Source: an uncultured Candidatus Saccharibacteria bacterium
GTDB lineage: Bacteria; Patescibacteriota; Minisyncoccia; Phycocordibacterales; UBA1550
Assembly: GCA_964642305.1 (NCBI GenBank)
Contig: CAZXOE010000004.1
Coordinates: forward strand, 7,894 to 71,893
Direction of reading: 5' to 3'
Length of the DNA: 64,000 bases
Under the pieces are notes generated by a model. It searched no databases and had not been told where the DNA came from. It was given only the letters and a program-made list of their open reading frames with translations. This document shows positions 1,859-51,122 of this stretch, piece after piece. Every line of letters starts with the position of its first letter. Within the stretch, counting starts at the first letter, position 1. A program made the position numbers and the translations under genes.

Positions 1859-2045
1859 GGCGAATTAGCAAATTCGGGGCTTGGCCCAAGACGTCACAAC
1901 CCTATAAGTACTCTCGATCCCGGCTCAGCGACCTAGTGAGTACACTAGGTGCCCGCTTGCGCCCCCAGCTCGTGGTTTTGCCTCCCAGTGGGTCGGCAAA
2001 ACATCACTGCGCCTTTCAACCCTTTAAATATGCTTCGCATATTTA

Positions 2046-2105
2046 TCCTCGGCACCATAATAAAACACCGCACAATCGTGCGGTGTTTTATTATGGTGCC
2101 GAGGA
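2046..2105. repeat. Perfect 28-bp inverted repeat (4-nt loop) whose right arm is the tRNA-Phe 3' acceptor strand plus CCA
   Basis: tcctcggcaccataataaaacaccgcac-aatc-gtgcggtgttttattatggtgccgagga. The reverse complement of the left arm equals the right arm exactly. Confidence 0.9.
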
Positions 2106-2169
2106 CCAGGGTTGAACTGGTGACCCCTCGCTCTTCAGGCGAATGCTCTACCAACTGAGCTACCTCGGC
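2094..2169 (-). tRNA. tRNA-Phe (anticodon GAA), CCA encoded
   Basis: Reverse complement folds as GCCGAGG/CCTCGGC acceptor, D arm GCTCAGTTGGTAGAGC, anticodon stem TTCGC/GCGAG with loop CTGAAGA (GAA), T arm GGTCA-CCAGTTCAACC-CTGGT, 3' CCA. Confidence 0.9.
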
Positions 2170-3800: not shown

Positions 3801-4457
3801 ATGAAAAGAGCACTTATTACAGGTTCAGAAACTTTTGGAAAATATTTAGCTAACCCTACTAAATGGCTAGCGCTCTTTGCAGACGGTAAAATAATTGCGG
3901 ATTACGAGATTCACTCTTTAGTTTTTCCAGCCATTGTATTATTTCCCGAAGGAGCAGAGGACCCAGGAGAAGTAATAATGAAAAAAGCTCAAGAAATAAA
4001 CGTAGATGTAATTCTTTCTTTTGGTATGGCTTCAGAGGTAAAGGGATTTCGTTTGGAGCAAACGGGAATAAATTGGATTTATAATGAAAAGTACCTTTCC
4101 TCTTTTGAAAACAACAGACCAGTTGATATAACACAGCCAGAAAAAGAAAAGATCAAAACCGATCTATCACATTGGGACATAGAAAAAATGCAGGGACTTT
4201 TTACTAAAGCAAATATTCCTTTACAATCAGAAATTTCTGATGACGCAGGTCAATATGCTTGTAATGGTTGGATTTACAGAACTTTGCTTGCAATGAGAAA
4301 ACAAAAACTTAACATTCCTTATTTGTTTGTTCATTGTTCATGCACAGAAGAAGCGGTAGAGCTTATTCCAGATTTTGATAGAAAAAATAGACTACTTATT
4401 AAAAAGGAAGACACGCTGAAAGCCTTGGAAATTATTTTACAGTCATGTAAGAGTTAG
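3801..4457 (+). CDS. Pyroglutamyl-peptidase I-like (peptidase C15 family)
   Basis: N-terminal ALITGSETFG (compare Pcp VLVTGFEPFG), DAGQYACNGW (Pcp catalytic Cys region SAGTFVCN) and a downstream HCS. Confidence 0.65.
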   Translation: MKRALITGSETFGKYLANPTKWLALFADGKIIADYEIHSLVFPAIVLFPEGAEDPGEVIMKKAQEINVDVILSFGMASEVKGFRLEQTGINWIYNEKYLSSFENNRPVDITQPEKEKIKTDLSHWDIEKMQGLFTKANIPLQSEISDDAGQYACNGWIYRTLLAMRKQKLNIPYLFVHCSCTEEAVELIPDFDRKNRLLIKKEDTLKALEIILQSCKS

Positions 4458-22452: not shown

Positions 22453-23097
22453 CTACTTCTCTGCTTCTGCGGGCGCCTCTTCCTCCTTCTTACCCTTCTT
22501 TTCTACTTCAATAGCTGAGAGATCCATCACTGGCGCTTCTATTGGCTCATCTTTTGCGACCGCGATTGCAGCAACGACATCTGTTCCGTGAGTAACAAGT
22601 GTGATTCCTTTTGGAAGAACGATGCTCTCTGCGAGAATCTGACTATCAAGCGCCTCAAGTGCTGAAATATCAATAACAAAATTGTGTGGAAGATTTTCTG
22701 GCTGACCCTTTACTTCAACTTCGTGAAGAACCTTTACAAGAGAGCCGCCAAGATCCTTTACGGCAACAGACACGCCAGTAAACTCAAGTGGGATGTTCAC
22801 CGAAACTTCCTGACCTTTTTCTAGAGCGTAAAAATCAACGTGGATTGGGTGACCTTTGATAGGATCAACCTGAACCTCGTGAATTAGCGCTGAAACCTTG
22901 CCTTTTGGCATTTCAAGAGTAACAACGGTTGACTCTCCTGCTGCCTTCCAAACCTTTTTAAAGGCAACTGCTGGAAAAACACACGGAGTAGCGGCCTCCT
23001 TGTGTCCATAATAAACCCCAGGAACAAAGCCCTCCGCGCGAATAGCTGAAAGTTTTGTCTTTGGATCCCTTATTTCTCCTTTTAGTGTGATATTCAT
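22453..23097 (-). CDS. rplY: Ribosomal protein L25 / general stress protein Ctc
   Basis: MNITLKGEIRD...GFVPGVYYG... L25/Ctc pattern with an acidic C-terminal tail. Confidence 0.85.
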   Translation of the reverse strand: MNITLKGEIRDPKTKLSAIRAEGFVPGVYYGHKEAATPCVFPAVAFKKVWKAAGESTVVTLEMPKGKVSALIHEVQVDPIKGHPIHVDFYALEKGQEVSVNIPLEFTGVSVAVKDLGGSLVKVLHEVEVKGQPENLPHNFVIDISALEALDSQILAESIVLPKGITLVTHGTDVVAAIAVAKDEPIEAPVMDLSAIEVEKKGKKEEEAPAEAEK

Positions 23098-23223
23098 CCC
23101 GTTAGAGGTAGGAAATTATTGAAATTTCCGTAGTTAACTAATAAATCGCTGATATTAATACCTTTATCCTAAATTCCCCGCCGGTTTCCCTTCCTAAACT
23201 ATGGGACCTCTAACGGGATTCAT
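23098..23223 (-). mobile_element. MITE-like element, copy 1 (11-bp TIR cccgttagagg/cctctaacggg), abutting the rplY start codon
   Basis: Shares the first 38 nt and last 16 nt with the 36496-36619 copy; the middle differs. Flanked by atgaat on both sides. Confidence 0.6.
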
Positions 23224-31000: not shown

Positions 31001-31975
31001 TTATATCACATTCCGCACGGCCTCCTTAATATGACCAATACCCATACCATAATGTTCCAAAAGTTCGGCGGGTGAACCTGATTGCCCGAACAAATCCTTT
31101 ACTCCGATGAATGCCATCTTTGTTGGATGTTCTTCCGCAAGAATTTCAGCAACAGCCGAGCCCATGCCTCCAGCGATTTGGTGCTCCTCTACTGTAACAA
31201 TTCTTCCACACTCTTTTGCGAGGGCAACCACCGCTTCGCGATCCATCGGCTTCACGGTTCCAATATTTAAAACAACAGAACCAATTCCCTCACCTTCAAG
31301 CTCTTTTCCTGCCATTATCGCATTGTAAACAAGCGAACCGCACGCAATGATACCGACTTTTGGCGCAGTTACCGAGCGAAAAAATTCTTGCGCTTTGCCA
31401 ATTTCGAACGGCGTATCTTCGGTCGTAATAATAGGAGTTTTTTCACGAGCGAGACGAATATACGTCGGAGAATTTGTTTTTGCCATTGCGATGGTTGCCT
31501 TTCGCGCTTCAATGCTATCGCAAGGCGTAATCACTACCATATTTGGAATGACGCGTGTAATGGCAATATCCTCTATCGCCTGATGTGTACCGCCGTCAGG
31601 ACCCACGGAAACTCCAGCGTGCGAGCCAACAATTTTCACGGGGCGGTCATTGTAACAAATGTTTGTGCGAATCTGCTCCCAGCTTCTCCCTGGAGAAAAC
31701 ATCGCGTACGATGAAACGAAAGGAATCTTGCCCATCGCTGCCATTCCCGAAGCAACTGACGCAGATGACTGCTCCATGATCCCCATTTCAAAAAATCGTT
31801 TTGGAAACTCTTTTGCGAATGCGTCCATCTTTGTGGACTCTGTAAGGTCGCAACACATCGCCACCACGCGCTCGTCCGCGCGCCCAGCAAGCACGAGCCC
31901 CTCGCCAAAGCCCGCGCGAATCGGCGCTTGTTGTACATCAGTATCAAATAGTTTTGGATTGAGAGAAATTTGCAT
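31001..31975 (-). CDS. Transketolase, C-terminal (pyrimidine-binding) subunit
   Basis: ...MGIMEQSSASVASGMA...GPDGGTHQAIEDIA... covers Tkt domains II and III. Confidence 0.9.
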   Translation of the reverse strand: MQISLNPKLFDTDVQQAPIRAGFGEGLVLAGRADERVVAMCCDLTESTKMDAFAKEFPKRFFEMGIMEQSSASVASGMAAMGKIPFVSSYAMFSPGRSWEQIRTNICYNDRPVKIVGSHAGVSVGPDGGTHQAIEDIAITRVIPNMVVITPCDSIEARKATIAMAKTNSPTYIRLAREKTPIITTEDTPFEIGKAQEFFRSVTAPKVGIIACGSLVYNAIMAGKELEGEGIGSVVLNIGTVKPMDREAVVALAKECGRIVTVEEHQIAGGMGSAVAEILAEEHPTKMAFIGVKDLFGQSGSPAELLEHYGMGIGHIKEAVRNVI

Positions 31976-31979
31976 GATT

Positions 31980-32252
31980 CTATTTTACCGTTAATCGCAG
32001 CCCAAGACCAGTAGTAACTTTTTGAATGAACGAAAATGTAGGGTTCCCGCGCCCAGACTCAAAGCGAGCGAGGGCTGATTGTGTAATACCGATTTCTGCA
32101 GCAAGCGCTTTTTGTGTAAGGTTTTTCTGTGCGCGCTTTTTTATAATCGCCTCAATAAGGTCAAACTCGACATCGGACTCCGCCATTGCCTTTTTGACTC
32201 CAGGGCGTTTCATGGACTCCTTTTTAAATTGTGCAAATGTTTTCATTTTCAT
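31980..32252 (-). CDS. HTH XRE-family antitoxin (HigA-like)
   Basis: LTQKALAAEIGITQSALARFESGRGNPT HTH, directly downstream of the toxin-like gene. Confidence 0.7.
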   Translation of the reverse strand: MKMKTFAQFKKESMKRPGVKKAMAESDVEFDLIEAIIKKRAQKNLTQKALAAEIGITQSALARFESGRGNPTFSFIQKVTTGLGLRLTVK

Positions 32253-32279
32253 AATATTATGTATACCATATATGGTATA

Positions 32280-32588
32280 TTATTGCAACTTGTTTTTCAA
32301 ACGATATACATAATCAATATCCTTTTGTGAGAGTTTTTGTGTCTTTTTTATGATTGCGTGCAATATAATCGCTTCTCCGTTTTTAAAAATGAAAAATATC
32401 CTTATATTACTTATGCCAATCACTCGCAGTTCAAAAATCCCCTCAGAAATATATTTTGTATGCGGATAACGAATTGTGTGACCATATTCCTCTAAAAGCC
32501 CGACTGACTTATTTATTTTTCCCACAGAAACATCATCAAGACCATAAAGAAAGTCGTATGTCTCTGAAAAAAGAAAATTGATTTTCAT
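32280..32588 (-). CDS. HigB/Gp49-like toxin (RelE/ParE superfamily)
   Basis: ...YDFLYGLDD...KI...GLLEEYG...ISEGIFELRV...RIFFIF..G.AIILHAIIKKTQKLSQKDIDYV matches the Gp49/HigB pattern. Start taken at MKINFLF. Confidence 0.65.
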   Translation of the reverse strand: MKINFLFSETYDFLYGLDDVSVGKINKSVGLLEEYGHTIRYPHTKYISEGIFELRVIGISNIRIFFIFKNGEAIILHAIIKKTQKLSQKDIDYVYRLKNKLQ

Positions 32589-32642
32589 ATTACTACACTT
32601 TGCCAAAGCCCGCTGCGTCCAAGACGTGAATCTTCTGATGTT

Positions 32643-32732
32643 TATGGCCAAGCCACGAAATCAGCTGATTCGGAATCGGCGCTTGCTCTATAGTTGGGTC
32701 TATGGCCGAGCCACGAACCAGCTGATTCGAAA
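32643..32732. promoter_or_regulatory. Two ~33-nt direct repeats, each with a CAGCTG-centred palindrome, upstream of the toxin gene (candidate operator)
   Basis: tatggccaagccacgaaatcagctgattcggaa and tatggccgagccacgaaccagctgattcgaaa, with a 58-nt period. Confidence 0.55.
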
Positions 32733-32759
32733 GTTTTGGATTGAGTTGAATGTTCATAT

Positions 32760-33026
32760 TTACTGCGAGTATTTACTACGATTATATAGAAAATATACAA
32801 TGCTCACAATAATCCCCAACAAAAGGGCTTGTCCTCCCCTTACGAAAATAAACACATAACCATCATCTTTAAAAAGATTTACTCCTCCAAAAAGAATGAC
32901 AATGGTTGCAAAGAAAATCATAGCGCCCATTGGGAAAATGACAGTCGTCATAAAAAAGACTTTTCTAATTTTTTTGTTTGTCTCCTCGTTTTGTTGTGAT
33001 GTGTTTTTTTGATTCATACTATTCAT
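32760..33026 (-). CDS. Hypothetical small membrane protein
   Basis: 88 aa, two TM helices. Overlaps the tkt N-subunit stop by 8 nt. Confidence 0.4.
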   Translation of the reverse strand: MNSMNQKNTSQQNEETNKKIRKVFFMTTVIFPMGAMIFFATIVILFGGVNLFKDDGYVFIFVRGGQALLLGIIVSIVYFLYNRSKYSQ

Positions 33027-33888
33027 GCTCGCTCATAATCTGCCCTCCGAGAGTGCGGAGCTCTGCGAGCGCATTATCTCCCTGCTCCACATTTGGTGGA
33101 TTGCCATGCCACTTGTAGTCGTTCTCAAACATTTCTACGCCTTTGCCGGGAATAGTGTGCGCAATGATGACGGACGGCTTTTCAAAAATCGCGCGCGCCG
33201 TATCCACTGCATCCACAATAGCCTCCATATTGTGCCCGTCAATCTCAAGCACATGCCAGCCAAATGCTCTCCACTTATCCGCAAGCGGTTCCAACGGCAT
33301 TACGTTTTCTGTGAATCCATCAATTTGAATATTGTTGCGGTCTACAATGGCGACAAGGTTGTGAAGTTTCTCTTTTCCTGCAAGCATCGCCGCTTCCCAA
33401 ATCTGCCCTTCGTTCAACTCTCCATCACCCAAGAAACAATAAACTGTTCTGTTTGAATTGTGTCCCCTATCTAATCGGTCTACTATTGCCATACCAACCG
33501 CTTGCGAAAGTCCCTGCCCGAGTGGACCGGAGCTTGTCTCAAGCATTGGCAAATATTCGCGGTGTGGATGCCCCTGAAGTCGTGTTCCAAATTTGCGAAG
33601 CGTTTTTAATTCTTCAATAGGGAAATACCCTACATGTGCCATCGTCGCATACATGACTGGGCAAATGTGTCCGTTTGAAAGCACCACGCGGTCACGGTCT
33701 TCCCACGAAGGGTTCTTTGGGTCGTGTTTTAATATATGAAAATAGAACGCAGTAAAAATATCCGCCATACCAAGTGGCCCCGCGGTGTGACCAGACTTTG
33801 CTTCTACAAGCATCTCAATAATAGACTTGCGAACTTCAAGCGCTTTCTCTTCTAGAAATTTAATTTTGTCATCATGGAGATGAGTCAT
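33019..33888 (-). CDS. Transketolase, N-terminal (TPP-binding) subunit
   Basis: ...SGHTAGPLGMADI...GDGELNEGQIWEA... covers Tkt domain I. Confidence 0.9.
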   Translation of the reverse strand: MTHLHDDKIKFLEEKALEVRKSIIEMLVEAKSGHTAGPLGMADIFTAFYFHILKHDPKNPSWEDRDRVVLSNGHICPVMYATMAHVGYFPIEELKTLRKFGTRLQGHPHREYLPMLETSSGPLGQGLSQAVGMAIVDRLDRGHNSNRTVYCFLGDGELNEGQIWEAAMLAGKEKLHNLVAIVDRNNIQIDGFTENVMPLEPLADKWRAFGWHVLEIDGHNMEAIVDAVDTARAIFEKPSVIIAHTIPGKGVEMFENDYKWHGNPPNVEQGDNALAELRTLGGQIMSEHE

Positions 33889-33892
33889 AAGA

Positions 33893-34600
33893 CTATGATA
33901 CTAAATTTTTCATTTCTGCGATAGCAGAAACAAAGTCATCTGCTTCCAAAATTGCTGATCCAGAGACCAAGCGTGTCGCGCCAGCGTCTACAAGACTTCG
34001 CGCTGTATCCATATTGACAGAGCCGTCAATACTAATTGGCAGTTCAGGATATTTTGCGCGGAGCGCTCGCACATGATCAAGCACGCGCTCATCAAAGGGT
34101 TGCCCTTGAAACCCTATACGCTCGATACCCATACACTGCACAAAATCAACTTGATCAAGGTACGGCTCTATAGACGATAGCGGTGTTGTCGTATTGAGAG
34201 CAATTCCGAGTTCTATAAAGCCATCTGGGATAGCGTCGCGAATAGCGTTAAAATCACTCACACTTTCAACATGAACAATGATACGCTGCGCTCCTGCGGT
34301 GACCCATTGTGAGATGACATCCTCAGGATTCTCCACCATCAGATCAACTTCAAAATCAATATCTTCCCACAATGGCATTCCCTCTTCCTCTGCAACGATA
34401 GCGTCGAAATGAGCATCCTTTGGATACGGCCATGTACGAGCAGGCACAAATTTCCCATCCATAATATCTAGCTGAACCATTGGAACCACACCCACAAAAA
34501 GGCTCATCATCTCATCAAGATGCTCGTAGTCTTTTGGCATTATTGCAGGGATGATTTCGATCATGGGATTTAATGTTAAATGATAAATTTTAAATTTCAA
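33893..34600 (-). CDS. rpe: Ribulose-phosphate 3-epimerase-like
   Basis: QLDIMDGKFVP and DGSVN motifs on a TIM-barrel scaffold. Confidence 0.75.
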   Translation of the reverse strand: MKFKIYHLTLNPMIEIIPAIMPKDYEHLDEMMSLFVGVVPMVQLDIMDGKFVPARTWPYPKDAHFDAIVAEEEGMPLWEDIDFEVDLMVENPEDVISQWVTAGAQRIIVHVESVSDFNAIRDAIPDGFIELGIALNTTTPLSSIEPYLDQVDFVQCMGIERIGFQGQPFDERVLDHVRALRAKYPELPISIDGSVNMDTARSLVDAGATRLVSGSAILEADDFVSAIAEMKNLVS

Positions 34601-35139: not shown

Positions 35140-35442
35140 TTATTTCTGTCCTTTTAGAATTATCCTTTCTTCAAAACCCCCTCTCTCTTCTCGCTTCCTA
35201 TCTCGAATTTTTTCAACATTCTCATATTCAGGAAGTTTTTTAATGGCCTCAATGACTTCAAGGACATCAGCAAGCTCTTCAGTATCTCCTTCCACTAAAA
35301 ATTCCTGAGTTTCCTCCCCGAGCTTCTTTATAAGTTCAGCTCTATACTCTTCTGCAGAGGCAATTCGTTTTTCATACAAAACTCCCTTCTGGTCAAGAAT
35401 TTCAGGAATTTTATCTCTAACTAATTTATTATAATCTTCCAT
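35140..35442 (-). CDS. MazG-like nucleotide pyrophosphohydrolase domain protein
   Basis: LVRDKIPEI...EEYRAELIKKLGEETQEF... resembles the MazG/HisE-like all-alpha NTP-PPase fold. Confidence 0.55.
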   Translation of the reverse strand: MEDYNKLVRDKIPEILDQKGVLYEKRIASAEEYRAELIKKLGEETQEFLVEGDTEELADVLEVIEAIKKLPEYENVEKIRDRKREERGGFEERIILKGQK

Positions 35443-35451
35443 GAATTTTAA

Positions 35452-36495
35452 TTAGAGGAAGCTCGCCACCTTAACCACGTGCTTCACAAGCGTATTCGTG
35501 TACCCCATTTCGTTATCGTACCATGCCATCACTTTCACTAGGTTGCCGTCTACTACACGCGTAAGGTCGAGGTCGGCAATAGAACCATAAAGTTCGCCGA
35601 CAATATCAGAAGAAACAATAGGCTCTTCGCTTACTTTAAAAATACCCTGCCAACGAGAATCGCGCGCAGCGTCGCGAAGAATTTGATTCACCTCCTCTAC
35701 GCTCGTATTTCTTTTTGCGATGAATGTCACATCGGCAATAGAGCCCGCAATGACCGGCACGCGGATAGAGATGCCATCAAACTTCCCTTTGAGATCCTGA
35801 ACCACTTCCGTCACTGAGATCGCAGCACCTGTTGAAGCTGGGACCATATTTGCAGCGCCTGCGCGCCCACCACGAAGGTCCTTTCCTCCAGGCCCGTCAA
35901 CAATCCTTTGAGTACCAGTGTATGCGTGCGTGGTATTCAAGATCGCCTTTTCAATTCCAATCGTCTCATTCAAAATGCAAACTACTGGACTAGCTGCGTT
36001 TGTGGTGCATGATGCATTTGATGAAATTTTTGCGCCAGAGAGCTTGTCGTCATTGATACCCATGAGAGCGGTAATACATGGAACCTCGGGAAGTGCTTCG
36101 CCTTTCATTGGCGCAGTGATCACCACACGCTTTGCGCCCTGTGTGAGATGCACATTTGCTTTTTCTGGGCTTGTAAAAAACCCTGTTGATTCAACCACGA
36201 TATCAATGTCGTACTTTGCCCAAGGGAGATTGGTTGGCTCTTTTTCCTGCACGAGAATTACTTTTTTACCATCCACAATAAAGCCAGGCTCCTCGCCACT
36301 CCCTGGTGCAACTACTGTCACATCAAAATCCGCCTTGCCGTAAGCTGTGTCGTACTTGAGAAGGTACGCCATGTTCTCTGGGTCTCCAAGGTCATTCACG
36401 GCAACAATCTCGAGCTCTGGCTGTGTCCTTGCCAATTTATAAAACGCGCGTCCAATGCGCCCAAACCCGTTAATTGCTACTCGTACTTTTTTCAT
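35452..36495 (-). CDS. gap: Glyceraldehyde-3-phosphate dehydrogenase
   Basis: VAINGFGRIGR...SNASCTTNA... Confidence 0.95.
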   Translation of the reverse strand: MKKVRVAINGFGRIGRAFYKLARTQPELEIVAVNDLGDPENMAYLLKYDTAYGKADFDVTVVAPGSGEEPGFIVDGKKVILVQEKEPTNLPWAKYDIDIVVESTGFFTSPEKANVHLTQGAKRVVITAPMKGEALPEVPCITALMGINDDKLSGAKISSNASCTTNAASPVVCILNETIGIEKAILNTTHAYTGTQRIVDGPGGKDLRGGRAGAANMVPASTGAAISVTEVVQDLKGKFDGISIRVPVIAGSIADVTFIAKRNTSVEEVNQILRDAARDSRWQGIFKVSEEPIVSSDIVGELYGSIADLDLTRVVDGNLVKVMAWYDNEMGYTNTLVKHVVKVASFL

Positions 36496-36619
36496 CCCGT
36501 TAGAGATAGGAAATTATTAAATTTCCGTATCATAATTATATTAAACTGCTAATAATAGTAATATCAGTATAACCTATTGACCACAGAAACATAACTGAGT
36601 TATCTCTAACGGGATTCAT
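36496..36619 (-). mobile_element. MITE-like element, copy 2 (TIR cccgttagaga/tctctaacggg), abutting the gap start codon
   Basis: Same ends as copy 1. Begins on the nucleotide right after the gap ATG, in the 5' UTR position. Confidence 0.6.
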
Positions 36620-50839: not shown

Positions 50840-51122
50840 TTTCTCCTGTACTCTTTTGGCCAGCGAGTGCGAACTCCAACAAATGTCTAATATGTGAGTG
50901 CTTCGCTGGCCAAAGGAAAACAGGAACTACCTGTATAGTATATAACATAATACAATATAATCTGCATTCGCTCGGCAATTAAAACTTGCTAGTTTTCATT
51001 TCTCTCACTCACTTGATTATAAAAGATTTTCAATTAAATACCACCCGCCAAAATTTCGAATTAGTAAACTCGTGGCTTTGCCATAAACTCTTATTTAGAA
51101 AACTTAAGCGGGTAAGAACAAA

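Follow-up and report, generated by a model that had tools for sequence, protein, structure and literature searches.

A HigBA-type toxin-antitoxin pair as a probable long-standing resident between the two genes of a split transketolase

Toxin-antitoxin (TA) modules are usually viewed as mobile, autonomous two-gene operons. Classical HigBA (plasmid Rts1, Proteus vulgaris) is such an operon with a reversed gene order. Its RelE-fold, ribosome-dependent toxin is paired with a helix-turn-helix (HTH) antitoxin that represses via palindromes, and the main autoregulated promoter is upstream of the toxin. In classical toxin-first modules a second promoter sets the toxin:antitoxin ratio. In the Vibrio cholerae superintegron, higBA is found among stacked, co-oriented, TA-enriched cassettes. 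In pneumococcal HigBA, four palindromes in the promoter of higB, upstream of the gene, serve as operators (PMC7984235), and axe-txe has an internal promoter that adjusts the toxin:antitoxin ratio (PMC4803016). The HigBA pair described here is located between tktN and tktC, the genes for the two subunits of a split transketolase, in a 64-kb stretch of contig CAZXOE010000004.1, termed the window. The source bacterium belongs to the Paceibacterota and is close to Candidatus Yonathbacteria. All coordinates are window positions, and L-numbered loci are contigs used for comparison, either related to this locus or carrying a dispersed hairpin element that is also found in it. With a probability of roughly 0.7, HigBA is a long-standing resident of an operon rpe-tktN-higB-higA-tktC in a Paceibacterota clade, with the putative wiring set out below. 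A literature search found no paper on TA modules in the split transketolase of candidate phyla radiation bacteria.

The HigBA pair and its conservation at the site

The gene higB (positions 32280–32588, minus strand) encodes a Gp49-type toxin of 102 aa and higA (31980–32252, minus strand) an XRE-type HTH antitoxin of 90 aa. The toxin gene is 5' of the adjacent antitoxin gene, with a 27-nt spacer, and the higA stop is 4 nt before the tktC ATG. Pfam places the toxin in Gp49 (PF05973, E = 4.4e-15, 55.9 bits against a cut-off of 23.9) and the antitoxin in HTH_3 (E = 8.4e-14, above the cut-off). NCBIfam gives sub-threshold matches only for both. The Pfam domains of the flanking genes are those expected of a split transketolase. 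The thiamine pyrophosphate-binding domain is in tktN (33019–33888, minus strand; Transketolase_N, E = 4e-66), and the pyrimidine-binding and C-terminal domains are in tktC (31001–31975, minus strand; Transket_pyr, E = 1.8e-37, and Transketolase_C, E = 1.9e-24). The tktN gene is 88–92% identical to its closest relatives, and rpe (33893–34600, minus strand), first in the listed order, is ahead of it. An initial annotation of this DNA had proposed a HigB/HigA-type pair on the same strand between the transketolase subunit genes. Its open reading frames (ORFs) and coordinates are correct, and the pair, including the toxin-family assignment, is borne out by the Pfam matches and the layout.

The best Protein Data Bank matches of the two proteins are the two chains of one complex, Streptococcus pneumoniae HigBA 6AF3, with 6AF3_A (HigB) for the toxin (E = 1e-6) and 6AF3_B (HigA) for the antitoxin (E = 2.2e-7, residues 20–89). 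The toxin was modelled with AlphaFold from 17 relatives, with a predicted local distance difference test (pLDDT) score of 91.9. A Foldseek comparison gives a template modelling (TM) score of 0.83 to HigB of 6AF3/6AF4, followed by M. tuberculosis HigB1 and V. cholerae HigB2. [quoted passage not shown] In an HMMER alignment the window counterparts of the six are S48, E53, R55, R63, I79 and K81. Residues E53, R55, R63 and K81 are invariant in the 17 aligned toxin relatives, and the F90 counterpart, I79 in the window, is F in some of them. As judged from homology and the model, the proteins are a bona fide HigBA type II pair whose family and likely biochemistry are ordinary. By sequence similarity they add new members to the HigBA family, with S. 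pneumoniae HigBA as the closest.

A toxin homologue search of 5.8 billion proteins gives a tight clade of 102-aa toxins with 60–100% identity, beyond which identity is at most 52%. Genomic context was looked up for nine homologues (89, 79, 75, 72, 71, 69, 68, 60 and 46% identity), and all nine display the order tktN, Gp49 toxin, HTH antitoxin, sometimes one more ORF, and tktC. A 1-kb contig met by chance (L120), with a toxin of 89% identity, has the identical architecture, which makes ten relatives in total. Loci L002 and L051 also have tktN-Gp49-HTH-tktC. Junctions are mostly 0–10 nt: higB mostly starts 1–10 nt past the tktN stop, and tktC starts 0–9 nt past the higA stop in seven lineages. 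The outgroup toxin P0031 (48% identity) is encoded away from tkt, and its antitoxin gene is 1 nt downstream, with no spacer.

The identity of the TA proteins declines in parallel with that of tktN and tktC, and neighbour-joining (NJ) trees of toxin plus antitoxin and of tktN plus tktC are broadly congruent. In pairwise comparisons with six relatives, ratios of nonsynonymous to synonymous substitution (dN/dS) are 0.05–0.10 for the toxin and 0.06–0.12 for the antitoxin. Those of tktN and tktC are 0.03–0.07, with dS values that are similar to those of the TA genes and saturated. The dN/dS values of 0.05–0.12 imply that the genes of this TA pair, the toxicity of which is predicted from sequence, are maintained by selection. 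The pair has been kept between the halves of one enzyme while synonymous sites became saturated. The initial annotation had described the pair as inserted; this does not hold for a recent event, as the pair is conserved at the site across the clade and has diverged in step with tktN and tktC.

Several points weigh against long-standing residence. Genomes with and without HigBA are interleaved in a tkt tree of all relatives. The nearest tkt relatives of the window lack the pair: L020 and L001 have a membrane ORF alone at this position, and in L003 tktN and tktC overlap by 8 nt. This absence means that vertical inheritance needs several losses, or else that alleles were exchanged by recombination. 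The NJ trees are built on short proteins and are noisy, and dS is saturated. The simplest reading of these comparisons is that HigBA is an old resident of the site that was repeatedly lost or replaced; as an alternative to old residency with losses, the junction alleles may have been exchanged by recombination.

The spacer palindrome and a putative internal promoter

The 27-nt higB-higA spacer contains a perfect 18-nt palindrome, TATACCATATATGGTATA (positions 32262–32279, strand-neutral), a putative HigA operator. The full palindrome is unique in the window. The spacer is 27 nt in most loci, and in each of the 18 tkt loci with the TA pair a form of TATAnCATATATGnTATA immediately follows the toxin stop. 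Variants include a reduced left arm that runs into the last toxin codons (L083 and L094) and a variant core (L011 and L066). The distant loci L011, L031 and L066 carry a form of the palindrome; their toxins are only 34–39% identical and the HTH of their antitoxins is well conserved. Loci with the exact core TANCATATATGNTA have a single copy, in every case in the higB-higA spacer, and there is one stray match in 76 other loci. The palindrome is not upstream of higB but between higB and higA, where it overlaps a promoter-like motif. It is most likely, on this pattern of conservation, the binding site of HigA.

The promoter-like motif, TTGCAA-17-TGgTATACA (positions 32260–32288, minus strand), is 7 nt before the antitoxin ATG. 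The TTGCAA is at 32283–32288, in the last toxin codons, and the -10 hexamer is at 32260–32265. A TTGnnn followed after 16–17 nt by TGnTATAnn is present in 13 of the 18 loci, usually 6–9 nt before the ATG. An internal promoter of this type is probably leaderless or near-leaderless. The motif TGnTAnnnT is also found 6–10 nt before the ATG of many first operon genes in the window, with no Shine-Dalgarno sequence (e.g., ORFs at 3801, 6628, 20376, 24823 and 53987), a pattern suggestive of frequent leaderless or near-leaderless mRNAs in this organism.

Not all details fit a promoter under HigA control. L083, L084, L094 and L095 have no TTG at 16–17 nt, and in L088 the TTG is at 15 nt. The window -10 hexamer, TATACA, lacks the usually invariant final T, and an alternative, CATAAT, precedes the higA ATG by 3 nt. 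In its right half the palindrome is similar to a general promoter motif of this genome, e.g., that upstream of the ORF at 3801. The palindrome could act as an RNA hairpin instead, but its fold is predicted to be weak (-5.9 kcal/mol, z = -0.4) and no better in energy than those of shuffled sequences, and a stable RNA hairpin was rejected. Its variable pair appears as C-G, T-A and A-T, yet also as G..T, A..G and G..G.

The proposed arrangement is as follows. The higB gene would have no promoter of its own; it would be transcribed with the operon and its translation would be coupled to the preceding ORF. An internal extended -10 promoter in the higB-higA spacer would add transcription of higA and hence of tktC, and HigA bound at the spacer palindrome would repress it. 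Such a promoter would keep the antitoxin in excess despite the toxin-first order, and tktC would have a second, HigA-controlled source of transcript. Since the promoter-like motif and the palindrome are directly 5' of higA, tktC probably has this second source. No terminator-like site was found in the tktN-to-tktC interval, and read-through should therefore also reach tktC. The initial annotation had proposed that tktC expression may depend on read-through of the TA operon. The lack of a terminator agrees with read-through, but the conserved promoter-like motif before higA speaks against sole dependence on it. If the putative wiring is real, the locus is a clean, naturally occurring example of central carbon metabolism coupled to a TA module, in organisms with genomes of about 1 Mb.

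Two other leader sequences in the window resemble each other. The leaders of gapdh (35452–36495) and of the ORF at 22453–23097, at about 36496–36545 and 23098–23147 (minus strand), match closely. Both have a motif of about 33 nt, ACGGAAATTTnAATAATTTCCTAyCTCTAACGGG, directly before the ATG, with a GGAAATT/AATTTCC hairpin. This common motif may be a regulatory element.

Cargo at the tktN/tktC junction and the dispersed hairpin element

The junction was surveyed in 76 species-representative relatives, where a gap of at most 60 nt was counted as contiguous and one of at least 150 nt as filled. The two genes are contiguous in 40 and have at least 150 nt between them in 33. The earlier description of the subunit genes as normally adjacent thus applies to about half of the relatives, and many others have cargo. 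All cargo in this slot is co-oriented with the operon. HigBA homologues are present in L002 and L051, and distant ones in L011, L031 and L066. PemK/MazF toxins are found in L011, L012, L022 and L073, and a ParE-type toxin with an upstream partner in L123. Other cargo consists of a 23S-rRNA-IVP protein (L014), a DUF1653 protein (L004), a PCC-domain protein (L044) and, in various relatives, unrelated small membrane ORFs. In one subclade (L036, L055, L064 and L075) the slot has a membrane family of about 85 aa with two or three helices (MKIIEIILKLxFLxL...), the members of which match one another down to E = 2e-29 and have no Pfam family. A common long hairpin element is found in the tkt gap of L009 (4737–4835) and L010 (4843–4935), with a stem ..TTTRAAAAAC / GTTTTTYAAA.. 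and a conserved loop start, CGTATAAAATTTTGsTAAATTTTT.

Typically, the ORF that comes first after tktN opens at an ATG inside the tktN end (..GAGCATGAATAA). The last tktN codons of the window, AGCGAGCATGAATAG, contain the overlapping ATG that opens the next ORF, mem88 (32760–33026, minus strand), the start of which overlaps the tktN stop. In several contiguous loci, e.g., L003, tktC itself uses the ATG embedded in tktN. The mem88 ORF encodes a hydrophobic protein of 88 aa. It has no Pfam or other family match, and only mem88 itself was retrieved among the 5.8 billion proteins. Homology to the other membrane ORFs of the slot was rejected, as a comparison found no similarity (best E = 0.15). The pair and the membrane ORF are not a conserved set of three genes: the pair recurs in many relatives, though not in all, and the membrane ORF does not recur.

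Small cargo is also present at other junctions of the operon. A 100-aa ORF at 35140–35442 (minus strand), between gapdh and rpiB, has no Pfam or NCBIfam match. L083 has HicA between gapdh and rpiB, and L081 has RelB/ParE-YafQ upstream of gapdh and HicAB downstream of tktC. The TA genes at these junctions of L081 and L083 imply that the whole gap-rpiB-rpe-tkt operon collects small junction cargo.

This variety of cargo bears on a reading that is quite possible, at somewhat less than even odds, in which HigBA is an ordinary selfish or anti-phage (abortive-infection-type) TA module that persists here, and the palindrome and promoter are a device for antitoxin excess with no consequence for tktC. 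A site between two needed, co-transcribed genes would, as part of this reading, guarantee expression and make deletion risky. It accounts for a slot that gathers HigB, ParE and PemK families and small cargo in one orientation and for the HicA/HicAB and RelB/ParE-YafQ genes at other junctions of the operon, and there are weak PADLOC matches (NsnC, HTH_VI). [quoted passage not shown]

A wider proposal is unlikely, namely that the junction is a homology-bounded cassette slot in which HigBA has become wired in, the HigA-controlled promoter sets the tktC:tktN ratio and the TA module gates transketolase. If true, the state of the TA module would gate the assembly of transketolase, and with it the one connection of pentoses to glycolysis that these reduced genomes have. 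Less probable still is the co-option of the pair as a regulator of the pentose-phosphate operon. HigA bound at the spacer palindrome would then both repress the internal promoter and block read-through; in this way it would fix the ratio of tktN to tktC or turn transketolase off under stress, and the toxin function would be secondary. Long retention at one site, the tight coupling to tktC (0–9 nt in seven lineages), purifying selection on both genes and an operator in mid-operon are all in keeping with co-option. However, in the toxin the residues likely to be catalytic are invariant, which argues that toxin activity itself is selected. Many relatives lack the pair, some have unrelated ParE or PemK toxins in the slot, and several lineages have other ORFs between higA and tktC. 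The pattern across relatives better fits selfish or defence cargo than a dedicated regulator.

The region between mem88 and higB had been regarded as the toxin promoter region. It is instead a degraded duplicate of about the first 26 codons of tktC (32593–32757, minus strand). The duplicate is a 54-codon ORF with no Pfam match that reads MNIQLNPKL-[13 aa]-IEQAPI-[19 aa]-AAGFGKV, compared with MQISLNPKLFDTDVQQAPIRAGFGEG at the tktC N-terminus (MQISLNPKLFDTDVQQAPIRAGFG in a shorter alignment). MAFFT was confused by two insertions, and segment-wise and insert-removed alignments were used. Three DNA blocks match tktC (26 nt at 81%, 18 nt at 89% and 12 of 12 nt), of which blocks D1 (81%) and D15 (89%) are direct repeats matching 31918–31975. 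The gaps between the blocks are exactly two hairpin repeats, and after removal of these inserts 61 of 73 nt are identical. In a scan with softer scoring the window copy has z = 5.2. The pseudo-ORF stops 4 nt before the higB ATG; in the window and L120 it is open across both inserts and ends 4–9 nt ahead of that ATG, and it may pass ribosomes on to higB.

Similar fragments are found in relatives. A strict scan missed the diverged tktC 5' copies of L009, L027, L085, L088 and L123, which were found by a motif scan and softer scoring. L120 has the pseudo-5' end with the hairpin element, followed by higB (89% identity), higA (87%) and tktC. In L123 (tktN 90%, tktC 89%) the order is tktN, a 114-aa membrane ORF, a pseudo-tktC 5' end, a ParE-type TA pair and tktC, and the pseudo-5' end carries the hairpin element at a site identical to that of the window. 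In L085 tktN is followed by a 77-aa ORF, a pseudo-tktC 5' end that matches the L085 tktC in 71 of 74 nt, higB, higA, a pseudo-tktN 3' end (AGCGAGCATGAATAG), a 98-aa membrane ORF and tktC. L088 has kept a decayed pseudo-5' end ahead of higB. L050, which has no HigBA, has a pseudo-tktN 3' end within the gap, and L011 possibly one after higA. L009 (4862–4975) and L027 (4859–4987) have a pseudo-tktC 5' end (M..LNPKIFDKD) with no protein cargo. In these two loci it is followed by a hairpin of about 20 bp (CCCCGTACAAAACAGCGAAAC...GTTTCTGTCTTGTACGGGG).

Cargo units are thus bordered by fragments of the flanking tkt genes, an arrangement indicative of homologous or illegitimate recombination. No integrase or attC site was seen in the gap regions read. 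Alternative junction alleles would be swapped through the conserved tktN 3' and tktC 5' sequences, and occasional illegitimate joins would add a cargo unit instead of replacing one. In the window an extra module, the ORFan membrane ORF plus the tktC 5' duplicate, would have been stacked between tktN and higB, most likely, from the arrangement of the fragments, when alternative junction alleles recombined with one another. Two copies of the dispersed repeat would then have invaded the dead tktC 5' copy. The junction is a tractable example of the acquisition and shuffling of accessory genes in small genomes with few mobile elements.

The two repeats of about 33 nt noted in the initial annotation are real, as window shuffles give an expectation of 0.00 matches. 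Each contains CGAATCAGCTG(G/AT)TTCG followed by TGGCTYGGCCA. Copy A (32698–32732, minus strand; nhmmer E = 2.9e-8), with a predicted fold of two hairpins, and copy B (32640–32675, minus strand; E = 2.4e-9) are 58 nt apart. Copy B is followed by a degenerate partial copy (32617–32639), and its insertion point, after CAAGCGCCGATTC, is the same in L120 and L123. The element has a consensus of about 32 nt, CGAATCAGCTGATTCG-TGGCTYGGCCA-TAAAC. Pairing between copies A and B can give a longer stem (-38.9 kcal/mol, z = -3.3), which has no U-tract and is therefore no intrinsic terminator.

A profile search from the two copies found further copies at 51054–51088 (plus strand, intergenic), at 1860–1892 (plus strand, a weaker match) and at 4188–4222 of L026. 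An exact-pattern scan of metagenome contigs found 41 with the element (L096–L136). The search pattern left two base pairs free to vary, and both covary. The closing pair of hairpin 2 is G..C six times and T..A 33 times in 39 metagenome copies, with no mixed pair. In the 36 distinct rows of the 41-copy alignment the same pair is U-A in 32 and G-C in 4, none mixed, and the variable pair of hairpin 1 is C-G in 23 and U-A in 12, with one mismatch. Base pairing is present in 99.2% of alignment cells compared with 20–58% for slid partners, and the covariation score was reached by none of 500 shuffles. Copies are mostly intergenic and in either orientation. Several adjoin tRNA genes, and one is inside an expanded RNase P RNA gene (L130, 313–799). 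In L113 the element is about 240 nt past a 16S 3' end. The CATAAAC end precedes an ATG by 8 nt in L026 and a tRNA by 11 nt in L136.

Three identities of the element were rejected. A sigma-70 promoter does not agree with the lack of a -35 sequence at sensible spacing, the mixed orientation and the copies with no downstream gene. A clustered regularly interspaced short palindromic repeat (CRISPR) does not agree with copies that are solitary, or with a 'spacer' that is itself repeated (L114). A known RNA was rejected as the element matches no Rfam family. No target duplication is evident at the tktC site; a transposase was not searched for. The element may be of the repetitive extragenic palindrome (REP) or miniature inverted-repeat transposable element (MITE) type, or an RNA processing signal, and it appears to be a so far undescribed repeat family of Patescibacteria.

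The copy at 1860–1892 is within a region with a repeat of a tRNA gene end. The 12 nt at 1844–1855, TGGTGCCGAGGA, repeat the 3' end of tRNA-Phe (2094–2169, minus strand). In the region 1844–2090 this repeat is directly followed by the element copy and then by about 200 nt that are richer in GC and have no Rfam match. The region may be an integration scar or a duplicate of an att-site.

The initial annotation had considered the repeats typical of an antitoxin operator. They are scattered in unrelated contexts and missing from orthologous TA loci: the element is absent from all 80 related tkt loci, including the orthologous TA locus L002, and from the TA loci L081, L083, L084, L087 and L092. The orthologous TA loci without it have no pseudo-5' end. 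In these TA loci higB abuts tktN or overlaps the stop of a membrane ORF; the higB of the latter five loci starts 1–10 nt after tktN. The palindrome of the element, CGAATCAGCTGATTCG, is unlike the palindrome that co-occurs with the conserved HigA HTH. On these comparisons the element has no specific connection with the TA pair, and its role as an operator is rejected. A recent TA insertion that has its own autorepressed promoter upstream of higB, with the CAGCTG repeats as HigA operator and with tktC in need of read-through, is very improbable and by sequence comparison largely refuted: the repeats are palindromic, they are 52–145 nt upstream of the toxin ATG just downstream of a sigma-70-like TTGTGA-17-TATAAT (10/12; 32809–32781), and no terminator is ahead of tktC, but the same element is found elsewhere in the window and in L026 and 41 metagenome contigs, adjacent to tRNA genes and in an RNase P RNA, it precedes a different, ParE-type TA pair at the same site in L123, its palindrome is unrelated to the one conserved with the HigA HTH, and the orthologous TA loci lack it and mostly have no room for a promoter between tktN and higB.

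Comparison with described systems

The window pair and S. pneumoniae HigBA (6AF3/6AF4) are alike in toxin-first order, XRE-type HTH antitoxin, active-site residues and fold. They have only 25–27% sequence identity, and their genomic contexts are entirely different. In contrast to the pneumococcal system, the window pair has one palindrome, in the higB-higA spacer, and apparently lacks a dedicated promoter upstream. Compared with Rts1-type HigBA, the window toxin would be driven by a housekeeping operon, and the antitoxin promoter would also feed a metabolic gene. As predicted from sequence, the regulatory layout differs from that of described HigBA systems with operators in a promoter upstream of higB.

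The hairpin element is similar to REP/REPIN and MITE-type repeats in that it is short, dispersed, mostly intergenic and in either orientation, with hairpins that have compensatory changes and copies that are sometimes in tandem or at the tip of longer hairpins. Unlike these repeats, it consists of two adjacent short hairpins and not one long imperfect palindrome, and it is conserved across many Patescibacteria-type contigs and not within one genome. A further difference is that no target-site duplication, terminal inverted repeats or associated transposase was identified, the last not having been searched for.

The tkt slot is similar to integron arrays in that small, co-oriented, TA-enriched cargo is stacked at one site and swapped between relatives. 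It differs from them in that its borders are fragments of the flanking genes, with no integrase or attC seen in the gaps read. The TA pair itself is ordinary; what is unusual is its long-term embedding in a split enzyme, together with the cassette-like junction and the undescribed hairpin repeat.

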